Both the position numbers and the translations under genes were made by a program. Below are positions 25,701 through 28,700 of a DNA stretch of 48,830 bases, in pieces. The stretch covers positions 1 to 48,830 of the forward strand of contig NZ_RAWN01000061.1 of the NCBI RefSeq assembly GCF_003668895.1, read 5' to 3'. Numbering within the stretch: position 1 is the first letter of the stretch; the number at the start of each line of letters is the position of its first letter. A model generated the notes under the pieces. It did not search any database, was not told the DNA's origin, and was given only the letters and a program-made list of their open reading frames with translations. The DNA comes from Corallococcus sp. AB045. GTDB lineage: Bacteria > Myxococcota > Myxococcia > Myxococcales > Myxococcaceae.

Positions 25701-28700
25701 CCGTGCGCCGTCATGCGCGCCAGCACGCCGCCTTCCTCCGCCATGCGCGCCAGGAACCCCAGCTTGAGCAGCTTCGTGCCCATGCCCGCGGTGGCCACGG
25801 AGGCGAGCGCATCCACGGCGCCCACGCCCGCGTCGGTGGCGGCCTCCTCCCAGCCGTAGGCGCTGCCCTTCAGGGCGGCCTTGGTCAGCATCGTCACCGC
25901 GGCCGTCGCCACCGCCGTGCCCACCAGCACCGGCGTGCTGGCCATGAACGCGCCGAACGCGGCCCAGAACCCCGCGCCCGCGGGGGGGAAGAAGATGCTG
26001 ACGATGACGCCGATGATGACCACCACCGCCATCACCACCACGGAGAGGATGGTCACCAGCCGGTCGGTGATGAAGTCCACCTGCTCGCGGTGCATCTGCA
26101 CCGCCTCGTCCGCGTAGTCCCCCTGGCGCTGCACGCGCTCGGACTTCTTCTCCCAGTCGTCCTGCCACGTGCGCAGCCCGTCGACGGTGTAGTTCTTGTC
26201 CCCGGGCTTGGGGCGCATCCGCTCGTGCAGCTCCAGCGCGCTCACCTCGGCGTCGAGCGCGGACGCCTGGTCCAGCACCAGCTGGTACTCCGACGACGCC
26301 ATGCTGTTGGTGGAGCGCGCCTCGAAGTGCACCCGGCGCCAGGCCCGGTCCGCCTTCTCCCGGGGCGTGACGGGCTCGCCGTAGTCCACCATGTCCATGA
26401 TGTCGAACTCTTCGCGCCCGCTCAGCTCCTCGTCGATGCGATCGCGGAAGCGCTCGAAGGGCGTGCGCGTGTCACCAGGATCGGCGGGGTGGTCCTTGGC
26501 CCACTCCTCGGCCATGGCTTGAATCTCCGCCTTTGTCTTTCCTGCGAAGACCTCCTTGAGCGCGTCCTCGTCCGTGCCTACGCCCTGCACGGCGTACTGA
26601 ACGATTTCGGCGTCGGTGAGGTAGCCCTTCTGCAGCATCGCCGCGACGGCGTCGCGGTCCGCGCCGGAGGTGTCCATCAGGACGGCCTGCTCGAAGCCCG
26701 CCTGCAGGTGTGTGCCTTCCACGTAGGCGCTGTCGTACTCGGCCGCCAGCGCCTTCATGTTCGCCTGGGCGTCAGCCTGGGCCTGGGCCTTCGCCTTGTC
26801 GTCCACCTCCTTGCGTTCCTTCGTGACGCGGGCCTGGACCTTCTCCGGGCTCCACTTCTCCAGGAACTCCAGCTCGCTGATGCGGCCCTTGCGGCGGTCC
26901 TCCTCCGTGAGCGGGCCCTCGCTGGCGGGTTTGACCTTCGCCTCGTCCAGGCTGCGCTCGATGTCCAGCCGCTCCTGGACGTCCAGGTATCCGTCGCGGC
27001 GCGCGTCGGCGATCTGCCGCTTGCCCTGCGCGGACATGGCGTCGCGGATGATCTTGTCGTCCGCGTAGAGGATGCTGGTGTGCTCGATGCGGATGCGCGC
27101 GGCATCCACCTGGAGTCCCTTGTCGTCGCGCAGGCCCTCGATGAGCTTGAGGTCCTCGCCCTTCATCTCGTCGTGGAACGCGGCGCTGAGCGCGCTCTCG
27201 CCCGCGGTGCGCTGGGTCCAATCCGTGCCGTATTGCTGCTCATACGACGCGTCGATGGCCTGGTTGCGCTTGAGCAGCTCCGCGCGGAATGTCTTGGTGT
27301 CCCAGCCGTACTGCTGCGCGTCTGCTTCCGTCTCCTTGCGGATGCGGTCGTAGACGCCCTCCATGGCCTTGCGGTCGGTGCCCAGGCCAAAGAACCACCC
27401 GCCGCGCATGGCGCGGTCCATCTCGATGGCGCGCGCGTCCTCGGTGCGGCCCTCCACCAGGGCGTGCATCTCGTCCGCGTCGTGCGTCGTGCGCGCGCCG
27501 CTGCGCAGCTCGTCGTCCATCTGGGCGACGAGGTCCTTGCCGTATTTCTGCTGGTAGGCCTTCTTGATGACTTCGATCTGCTCCGGCGTCTTGCCGCGAA
27601 GCAGGTTGAAGATGGCGTCCTCGTCCGTGCCCCAGCCGGTCCCGAGGAAGGTGCCCTCCATGGCGTCGTTCAGCTCGACGGCGGCGGCCTTGGCGGCGTT
27701 GCCGGAGAGCAGGGCTTCCGCCCTGTCCCAGTCATGCGTGGTGGTGCTGAAGAAGTCGTCCAGCTCGCTCTTGAGCCGCTCGCGCAGGTTCTCGTCGTGC
27801 TCCTGCTGGTAGAGGAGCTCGATGTAGTGGCCCTGCAGCGGGTTGAGGTTGGCGAGCGCGTCGAAGATCTTCTTCTCGTCCGTGCCCCACTGGTCCACGC
27901 CCTCCCAGACCTTGAGGGAGATGTTGCGGGCGCGGTTGCTGAAGAGGGGCTCCTGCTGGTCGACGACGACCTTCAACCGCTCCAGGTCGGTGGACGCGAG
28001 CAGCTCCTTCTCCAGGGCCTCCATCAGCGGCTTGCGGCGCTGGCCGATGATGCGCACGGCAAGGCCCTCCGCGAGCGCCTGCACCGCGTCCTTGCCACCC
28101 TTGCCGTAGTAGGAGAGCAGGATGGCCTGCTGCTCCTCGCTGAGGGCGTGGTTGCCCTTGATGGTCTCCGCGTCCAGCTCCTCGCCCTGGCGCAGGCGCA
28201 CCTCCGCGAGGAACAGCATGTTCTGATCCAACGACGTCTTGTTCTCCGCCGCGCGAGCGGCCTCCCACGCGCGGCTCTCGTCGTGGGCGACGTCCAGCCA
28301 GTCGATGATCCACCCGAGCAGCCGGTCCCAGAATCCGCGCTCGTAGCCGATCTGCTTCGCATGCCAGTCGCGGATGACCTCCCGGGCCTCCTTGCCGGCG
28401 TCGCGCAGCTCCTGCTGGTAGCGCTCCACGCTCTGGTCGATGTCGCGCTTCGCCTTCGCGACGACAGCGCCAATCTCCTTGCGGCGGTCGTCCAGCCACT
28501 TCTTGGTGGGGCGGTACGCCTCCGTGGCCGCCTTGAGCTTCACCGGATCATCGCCGGCGTCCTTCTTGAGTTCCCACTCGTCCTGGAGCGCGGCGAGCTC
28601 GTAGGCGTGCATCTGGTCGGTCGCGGCCTTAGCGAAGGCTTCCTTGAAGCGCTTGCCGTTCTGGTCGTACCGGACGACCCAGTTGCTCACCTTGGTGTCC

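Follow-up and report, generated by a model that had tools for sequence, protein, structure and literature searches.

The locus described here raises the question of whether a giant bacterial protein contains genuine annexin repeats and, if so, whether these repeats and a nearby pair of hydrophobic segments could act together at a membrane. The protein, a polymorphic-toxin-like effector, is the 2,713-aa product of D7Y21_16885 of Corallococcus sp. AB045. Its coding sequence lies at positions 22715-30856 on the minus strand of the window (open reading frame (ORF) listing), the window being the whole stretch of 48,830 nucleotides that was analysed (contig NZ_RAWN01000061.1, positions 1 to 48,830). 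Comparison with the public D7Y21_16885 protein (P0001) reveals 100% identity over the full length. An initial annotation of this DNA had proposed annexin-type repeats in an interval equivalent to aa ~986-1433 of the 2,713-aa protein, and the peptide that it gave as an example, GWGTDEDAIFNLLRGKTPEQIEVIKKAYQQKYGKDLVAQMDDELRSG, corresponds to aa 1073-1119 of the minus-strand product.

Annexin repeats in sequence and predicted structure

The giant protein matches the Pfam Annexin family (PF00191) in three stretches, with E=1.2e-21 and 77 bits against a cutoff of 25. A phmmer search of the PDB identified annexin VI as the best match (E=2.7e-20), and 75 annexin chains were matched at E<=0.01. The match is far beyond chance, and the proposal of annexin repeats in a bacterial giant protein is thus borne out. 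When the five repeats recognized here (R1-R5) were scanned singly, R1 (25.3 bits), R2 (42.5 bits) and R5 (26.7 bits) each passed the Pfam cutoff. GxGT-type motifs are present at aa 990, 1075, 1158 and 1426. The count of four or more GxGTDE-initiated repeats given in the initial annotation therefore stands, but not the uniform spacing of ~70 aa, since the first three motifs are 83-85 aa apart and the last follows after 268 aa.

The type II Ca2+-site motif of annexins, GxGT with an acidic residue 39 positions past the Thr that aligns with the cap Glu of annexin VI, is present to differing extents in the five repeats. It is complete in R2 (aa 1054-1134; 27455-27697, minus strand), which contains GWGTDE and a cap Glu in DDELRSG. 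In the phmmer alignment this repeat matches annexin VI repeats 1 and 5 residue for residue; GWGTDE coincides with the AB loop of the annexin, and the DDELRSG Glu with its cap Glu. R5 (aa 1415-1492; 26381-26614, minus strand) also has the complete motif, GVGTDE with an EELSG cap, although an insertion precedes the cap. R5 aligns with annexin VI repeats 2 and 6 and is the repeat retained in all relatives; its G1425, G1427 and T1428 are invariant or nearly so in an alignment of the family (A4). R1 (aa 972-1050; 27707-27943, minus strand) has QWGTDE and a cap Glu in KSELDD, and forms five helices in the predicted structure described below. The cap Glu is E1031 in R1, E1116 in R2 and, in R5, E1478, the latter Glu of EELSG. 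In R1, R2 and R5, family members down to ~25% identity conserve the GxGT loop together with the acidic cap.

The remaining two repeats are divergent. R3 (aa 1138-1243; 27128-27445, minus strand) has GLGTDR with a displaced cap and lengthened helices B and C; its GxGT motif is retained in many relatives in the family alignment. R4 (aa 1247-1410; 26627-27118, minus strand), delimited from the secondary structure of the model and from the family alignment, is degenerate and has lost the Ca2+-site motif. It contains ILYADD in place of GxGTDE, a 40-residue helix B and an ~100-aa helical insertion, and ends in LMDTSGADRD.

For aa 960-1515, AlphaFold with an alignment of 16 family sequences gave a confident, all-helical model that comprises five A-E five-helix units (predicted local distance difference test (pLDDT) 87.8; predicted template modelling score (pTM) 0.80). 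The five-helix, right-handed superhelical fold of an annexin repeat is present in this model, and it is through the model that R3 and R4 are judged to be annexin-like. In a Foldseek comparison with the PDB, the top 50 matches listed were all annexin-containing entries (best E=6e-9). Profile search and structure prediction, two of the checks that had been suggested for the repeats, agree in this respect, and the repeats are true annexin-fold domains, three canonical and two divergent. The canonical four-repeat annexin disc with its convex membrane face was not reproduced by the model in two structural comparisons; fitting the whole region to a four-repeat disc fails, with template modelling (TM) scores of 0.2-0.34 and at most 154 residues aligned. 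As modelled, the assembly of the five repeats differs from the classical annexin core.

The repeat-hairpin unit and the C-terminal domains

A hydrophobic helical hairpin (aa ~1596-1655; 25892-26071, minus strand) is situated ~100 aa C-terminal of R5, and its two segments are joined by PPAGAG. Kyte-Doolittle analysis gives peaks at aa 1593-1633 (maximum 3.24) and aa 1636-1654 (maximum 1.64), equivalent to nt ~25.89-26.07 kb, so that the double hydrophobic segment proposed just C-terminal of the repeats is real. Both segments and the short Gly-rich turn between them are conserved in alignment A4. The hairpin is followed by a Gly/Ala-rich region (aa 1656-1789; 25490-25891, minus strand), recognized in the same alignment, which carries a KGxAYGWEE...D..VG.VDA...TAG motif with invariant G, Y and D columns.

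In a search of 1.84 billion cluster representatives, a profile consisting of R5, the linker, the hairpin and the Gly/Ala segment matched 3,816 proteins at E<=1e-3, 2,184 at 1e-10 and 697 at 1e-30. At least 697 clusters, defined at 50% identity, thus carry the whole unit at E<=1e-30, and the earlier remark that annexin repeats are uncommon in bacteria was overstated. Clusters bearing the unit occur in myxobacteria, actinobacteria and many uncultured lineages. The best 150 matches were all essentially end to end, and most of these proteins are 2,000-3,000 aa in length. In 141 newly recovered representatives, a nearly constant stretch with a median length of 96 aa (interquartile range 93-104) separates the last repeat from the most hydrophobic 19-mer, and each of the 141 contains one or more annexin-like repeats, usually between three and five. 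In the most distant relatives (P0027 and P0032-P0034), R1-R4 were unmatched in the searches run, but one annexin repeat is kept before the hairpin. The last repeat, the linker and the hairpin are a fixed unit, and coupling as tight and as conserved as this fits a membrane-targeting or insertion module.

The layout of the family is a variable N-terminus, a conserved N-terminal domain, annexin repeats, a linker of ~100 aa, the hydrophobic hairpin, the Gly/Ala-rich segment, an E-H-Q domain conserved in some members, and then interchangeable C-terminal toxin domains. In the Corallococcus protein the N-terminal region (aa 1-~440; 29537-30856, minus strand) is of low complexity and rich in Ala (20%) and Pro (14%); it is probably disordered, has no Pfam match and is not kept in distant relatives as judged by BLAST. 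The conserved N-terminal domain (aa ~570-960; 27977-29149, minus strand) is rich in charged residues and helical by eye. It is common to the family, BLAST coverage extending from query position ~440 or ~570 onwards in P0024-P0030, and has a sub-threshold Pfam match to ATP-synt_B. A phmmer search of the PDB with aa 440-964 gave zero matches, and the giant protein had no significant match in NCBIfam. An 'LQxxAGNxAV'-type motif, which may be a loading signal, occurs in approximately the first 200 residues of P0024, P0026 and P0028-P0031; the Corallococcus proteins are without it. It is present within the first 150 aa of 20 of the 141 representatives.

Local BLAST comparisons reveal a core shared among relatives (query positions ~570 to 1780 or 2040), beyond which the C-termini diverge. 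Those of the relatives include PT-HINT, Hint_2, Ntox4, ADPrib_exo_Tox and PF18626 domains. PT-HINT or Hint_2 is followed by a further C-terminal region, and in some relatives an HExxH motif (HAHELGH) is present in the C-terminal region. Polymorphic toxins are built in this way, with a conserved N-terminal and central region and C-terminal toxin domains that can be exchanged. In one locus (L014), an Imm49 gene (19678-20403, plus strand) overlaps the stop codon of the gene for a 3,226-aa relative (P0033), and a RES-Xre toxin-antitoxin pair adjoins.

Three folded domains follow the Gly/Ala-rich region in the Corallococcus protein. The E-H-Q domain (aa 1790-2031; 24764-25489, minus strand), delimited by alignment A2 and phmmer matches, has invariant E1909, H1912 and Q1915 (EEGxHxxQ) together with LDE and RLF motifs. 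This domain of ~240 aa is found in a subset of the family, is duplicated in P0027 and retains ~40% identity in very distant relatives. It is modelled with a pLDDT of ~85-90 and had no match in Pfam, the PDB or Foldseek; it may be a processing or docking domain. The next domain (aa ~2124-2479; 23420-24487, minus strand) has a PD-(D/E)xK-like pattern, the invariant columns of alignment A3 placing E2239 on a helix and D2277 and E2298-x-K2300 on consecutive strands of the model. By these motifs it is a candidate nuclease toxin. The last (aa ~2530-2674; 22835-23269, minus strand) is an alpha+beta domain with HETRH at aa 2642-2646 (model pLDDT ~85), and is common to P0020 and P0021 at 60% identity. 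It is a candidate zincin-like peptidase; Foldseek gave a weak similarity to PprI/IrrE (probability 0.57, E 0.47). Overall, the AlphaFold model of aa 1790-2713 has a pLDDT of 74.7 and a pTM of 0.40.

The G+C content of the window is ~70%, which gives rise to long stop-free ORFs on both strands. One of these, a plus-strand ORF of 2,498 aa lying opposite the giant gene (22814-30310), was rejected as a high-GC artefact: its translation is of low complexity and rich in Arg, Leu and Gly, and the public protein and all homologues are encoded by the strand equivalent to the minus strand here. Such an antisense ORF could mislead gene callers.

The ATPase-giant operon and its surroundings

Immediately upstream of the giant gene, and ending 31 nt from it, is a gene for an AAA+ ATPase of 782 aa (30891-33236, minus strand) with a winged-helix domain (WHD, 2.8e-8) and one Cdc48/VCP-like AAA domain (Pfam AAA, 1.1e-24). 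Its best PDB matches are VCP-like ATPases. A match to Pvc16_N at the ATPase C-terminus (E 8.5e-4) was below the cutoff and is not relied on. An AAA gene is likewise directly upstream of the giant gene in L001, L003-L006 and L015, homology to the window ATPase having been compared by sequence for L001 and L003-L006. In L014 the AAA gene is two genes upstream, and a 323-aa gene is situated between it and the giant gene.

A phage-tail-like block of the contractile injection system (CIS) type, recognized with Pfam and PHROGs, occupies 108-19229 on the plus strand and is convergent to the ATPase-giant operon. Its genes encode, in order, a Tail_P2_I/Kelch baseplate protein, a 2,537-aa DUF6519/beta-helix protein and a gp5/VgrG-like spike, followed by a 536-aa protein with a weak tape-measure match and proteins of 720, ~400 and ~240 aa. 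The first of these (1,290 aa; 108-3980, plus strand) is a fusion of Tail_P2_I to Kelch-type beta-propeller repeats, and in L016 Tail_P2_I is fused to NHL repeats; the fused propellers may be target-recognition modules. The 2,537-aa protein (3977-11590, plus strand), encoded between the baseplate and spike genes, has an N-terminal DUF6519 domain and right-handed beta-helix repeats, and is possibly a giant tail fibre or receptor-binding protein.

The tail block and the ATPase-giant operon are also convergent in L003, a metagenomic locus whose giant protein is 50% identical. In the more distant loci (L004-L006 and L015) the genes are co-directional: Tail_P2_I is followed by genes for a collagen-like protein, proteins of ~600 and ~680 aa, a 57-76-aa protein (two in L005), a protein of ~500-630 aa and the ATPase, and the giant gene is the last or second-to-last of the run. 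The 536-aa and 720-aa proteins of the window were not linked by BLAST to the ~600-aa and ~680-aa proteins of L004-L006. In L016 a Tail_P2_I gene is present upstream and no AAA match is on record. Altogether, seven of the eight non-Corallococcus loci (L003-L006 and L014-L016) have at least part of this type of operon. A giant gene at the end of a tail-like operon is in the cargo position of extracellular CIS (eCIS) and Photorhabdus virulence cassette (PVC) loci.

Downstream of the giant gene are three co-directional genes (19879-22702, minus strand) that encode proteins of 175 aa, 261 aa and 504 aa and are conserved in L001 and L003. They are candidate immunity or accessory genes. The 175-aa and 261-aa ORFs of the window had no significant family match. 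The third (19879-21393, minus strand) encodes an FGE-sulfatase-like protein of 504 aa with HEAT repeats. An FGE-sulfatase-like gene is also found past the giant gene in L003 (19845-21185) and L016 (17344-18336), and genes weakly similar to it occupy this position in L004 (16834-18342) and L005 (16955-18286). Its recurrence where the giant proteins share 25-50% identity suggests a conserved accessory or immunity partner.

Further upstream, and transcribed in the same direction as the ATPase-giant operon, are genes for a Ser/Thr kinase with C-terminal WD40/PD40 repeats (34586-37309, minus strand) and a sigma-70 region-4 protein (38380-39369, minus strand). Both are conserved in C. coralloides-like genomes and are possible regulators. 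Two minus-strand ORFs (33209-33856 and 33902-34555) were rejected as members of the operon; they have no family matches, and synteny with L001 indicates that the genes between the kinase and the ATPase are those for a flavin reductase (33383-33883, plus strand) and an Fe/Mn superoxide dismutase (33929-34513, plus strand).

Elsewhere in the window, a plus-strand gene (41214-43490) encodes a 758-aa bacterial homologue of the eukaryotic Major Vault Protein (MVP), with Pfam matches to MVP_shoulder (4.8e-45), Vault_2 (3.8e-31), Vault (5.6e-31), Vault_3 (2.4e-20) and Vault_4. MVP homologues of bacteria or prokaryotes are apparently the subject of two earlier reports (bioRxiv 10.1101/872010; PMC3762200).

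Proposed function and known systems

On balance it seems probable, if only just, that the giant protein is a polymorphic toxin associated with a contractile injection system, in which the annexin repeats bind acidic lipids via type II Ca2+ sites and the hairpin inserts into the membrane. Packaging, Ca2+ and lipid binding, hairpin insertion and toxicity are the steps that we infer. The AAA+ ATPase could aid unfolding or loading of the effector. After ejection, the type II Ca2+ sites of the annexin repeats would engage acidic phospholipids, an interaction that Ca2+ influx at the puncture site would favour. Binding would set the adjacent hairpin against the bilayer and lead to its insertion, which could give the protein a membrane anchor or assist the transfer of its C-terminal toxin domains to their site of action. 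Ca2+-dependent membrane binding by the repeats is suggested by the GxGT and acidic cap motifs and by analogy. The initial proposal of a membrane-targeting or translocation module of a toxin is supported in part: the toxin context is upheld by the exchangeable toxin C-termini and Imm49, and the coupling of repeat to hairpin fits targeting or insertion, with the caution that the model does not show the canonical annexin disc.

Several observations weigh against this reading. R3 and R4, scanned singly, have no Pfam Annexin match, and across the family R4 conserves Y-[AST]-[DS]-D and has lost GxGT. The first hairpin segment (3.24 on the Kyte-Doolittle scale) is as hydrophobic as a permanent membrane anchor, and 2,713 aa is very large for cargo of a tail tube. 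By Pfam, the giant protein of the window is without DUF4157 and PT-HINT, and DUF4157 had no match in the scanned neighbours either. Zero PDB matches were found by phmmer with aa 1661-2713 or with a profile of the PD-(D/E)xK-like region, and the model of aa 1790-2713 had no Foldseek match in the PDB at E<0.1. It is for lack of a PDB match that the nuclease call is kept at the level of motifs, and, as Pfam, PDB-sequence and Foldseek comparisons gave no match, the activities of the two C-terminal folded domains are guesses. In the available sequence no sheath or tube gene was seen; the contig starts inside the baseplate gene. In C. terminator (L010), the 10 kb upstream contain only sub-threshold Phage_GPD and Baseplate_J matches and no sheath or tube genes. 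In C. coralloides-like genomes (L001), the 10 kb past the operon contain lanthipeptide and non-ribosomal peptide synthetase (NRPS)-type genes and no tail genes, and L007 is the exception among the non-Corallococcus loci, with neither the ATPase nor tail genes nearby.

Alternatively, the hairpin might be held permanently in the inner membrane of the producer, with the large flanking regions cytoplasmic and the annexin repeats on the inner leaflet. The protein would then not be packaged cargo, and would tether or trigger a cytoplasmic contractile system, or hold the toxin domains until lysis. The N-terminus has no signal peptide-like feature, and a two-helix hairpin would leave both flanks on the same side; the hydrophobicity of the first segment and the size of the protein, which argues against packaging, point the same way. 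For a similarly built protein of Burkholderiales JOSHI_001, Kodavali et al. (2014; PMC3894181) predicted a cytosolic location with a membrane anchor, and Streptomyces CIS are reported to be cytoplasmic and to require the membrane protein CisA for firing (PMC12237407). However, the hallmarks of exported polymorphic toxins include exchangeable toxin C-termini, PT-HINT modules for self-cleavage and an Imm49 gene downstream, and, in the case of Sle1, a protein with a hairpin is packaged in a tail-like particle (PMC13277306). A producer-side anchor is considered unlikely. Somewhat less likely again is that the annexin fold is an elongated, all-helical scaffold with no role in Ca2+ or lipid binding, its GxGT motifs being kept for folding; such a spacer might fit the cargo to the tube lumen or provide a docking surface for the ATPase or the spike. 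In the model the packing of the repeats departs from that of a canonical disc, R3 and R4 contain long helical insertions, the Ca2+ loop of R4 is lost family-wide, and tape-measure-like helical CIS cargo is known (PMC13277306). A scaffold alone, however, would need neither the AB-loop GxGT nor the acidic cap, which are co-conserved in R1, R2 and R5, and the fixed distance of 96 aa between repeat and membrane hairpin speaks for a role at the membrane.

The annexin region might instead be active in its own right in eukaryotic prey or a eukaryotic host, where it would disturb annexin-dependent membrane repair or trafficking. Myxobacteria prey also on eukaryotic microbes, and the ~46 residues over which R2 aligns with annexin VI repeats are of visibly high similarity. 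Annexin is also among the eukaryote-like eCIS domains predicted to be anti-eukaryotic (Geller et al., 2021; PMC8213781). Set against this, enzymatic toxin domains always follow the annexin region, as remarked by Zhang et al. (2012; PMC3482391). In addition, this large family has diverged deeply among the bacteria, with actinobacterial members included, and Imm49, an immunity gene of antibacterial type, is situated beside one member. Such mimicry of eukaryotes appears improbable.

If the favoured mechanism of lipid binding and hairpin insertion is correct, these proteins would show how a phage-tail-like injector delivers toxins of several thousand residues by means of a Ca2+/lipid-sensing annexin region coupled to a membrane hairpin, and they would provide an experimentally tractable bacterial annexin that bears on the debated origin of eukaryotic annexins. 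A bolder proposal, which we put forward as doubtful, is that the unit of last annexin repeat, ~96-aa linker, hairpin and KGxAYGWEE segment defines a large, unnamed superfamily of contractile-injection cargo in which the annexin region is a Ca2+ or wound sensor. Were this so, Ca2+ at the puncture site would trigger lipid binding, hairpin insertion and the autonomous translocation or anchoring of very large toxins. This would be the first functional Ca2+-dependent prokaryotic annexin, and a bacterial setting in which annexin-membrane chemistry could have predated eukaryotes.

The annexin content of this protein family (Kodavali et al., 2014) and the link between annexins and tail-like injection (Zhang et al., 2012; Geller et al., 2021) are already published. 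The observation and interpretation in the initial annotation restate this knowledge; the finding is real and mainly confirms existing annotation. Kodavali et al. catalogued bacterial annexins, noted transmembrane regions and toxin domains, and suggested roles in toxin delivery; gene neighbourhoods gave no general clue (PMC3894181). One entry of their Table S1 is gi|380729140 from C. coralloides, whose annexin domains (970-1040, 1045-1125 and 1415-1480) occupy the positions of R1, R2 and R5 in the giant protein of the window. From these matching positions, rather than from the accession, this is very probably COCOR_03294 of C. coralloides DSM 2259 (P0003), which is 90% identical to the giant protein over its full length. 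The five-repeat unit, the fixed spacing from repeat to hairpin, the ATPase partner and the tail-like operon go beyond that catalogue. The anatomy of the five repeats, the fixed repeat-hairpin spacing, the size of the family and the recurring operon of ATPase and tail genes are the additions made here, and these are incremental.

Compared with eukaryotic annexins (A5, A4 and A6), the giant protein has the same five-helix repeat fold and the GxGT(D/E)...acidic-cap motif of a type II Ca2+ site, but five repeats rather than four or eight, two of them divergent with long insertions, and no canonical disc in the model. Its repeats are, moreover, embedded in a 2,713-aa multidomain protein with a predicted transmembrane hairpin and putative enzymatic domains. 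For the annexin domains of PVC-delivered polymorphic toxins, Zhang et al. (2012) suggested an accessory role in breaching target membranes (PMC3482391). The Haliangium Ntox3 and lethal-factor-like proteins that they described are similar in that annexin lies N-terminal to a C-terminal toxin domain, bona fide in their case and a candidate in the Corallococcus protein, and in being assigned to phage-tail-like delivery, but they contain a single annexin domain and an N-terminal PVC-metallopeptidase (DUF4157), whereas the Corallococcus protein has five repeats, a hairpin and no DUF4157, and is several times larger. Geller et al. (2021) found Annexin among the domains enriched in eCIS loci (PMC8213781), and the Corallococcus protein lacks DUF4157, the usual marker of eCIS toxins.

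In architecture, the giant protein can be likened to Sle1/Tme of Streptomyces, tape-measure-related CIS cargo that is packaged and reaches lipid membranes (Nagakubo et al., 2024, 2026; PMC13277306). Their N-terminal region is long and helical (a coiled coil), a transmembrane helical hairpin is predicted, and the functional domain at the C-terminus is exchangeable; of these features, the hairpin and the exchangeable C-terminus are present in the giant protein and its relatives. Sle1 differs in that it has no annexin repeats and pairs with a DUF4157 protein, which is absent from the window locus. By published description, the annexin protein gi|375105645 of JOSHI_001 is similar in its arrangement of two adjacent repeats and one ~330 aa later (880-946, 964-1022 and 1297-1352), and its repeats adjoin a membrane anchor. 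Its C-terminal toxin, colicin D, is a different one, and it has a Pyocin_S domain (PMC3894181).

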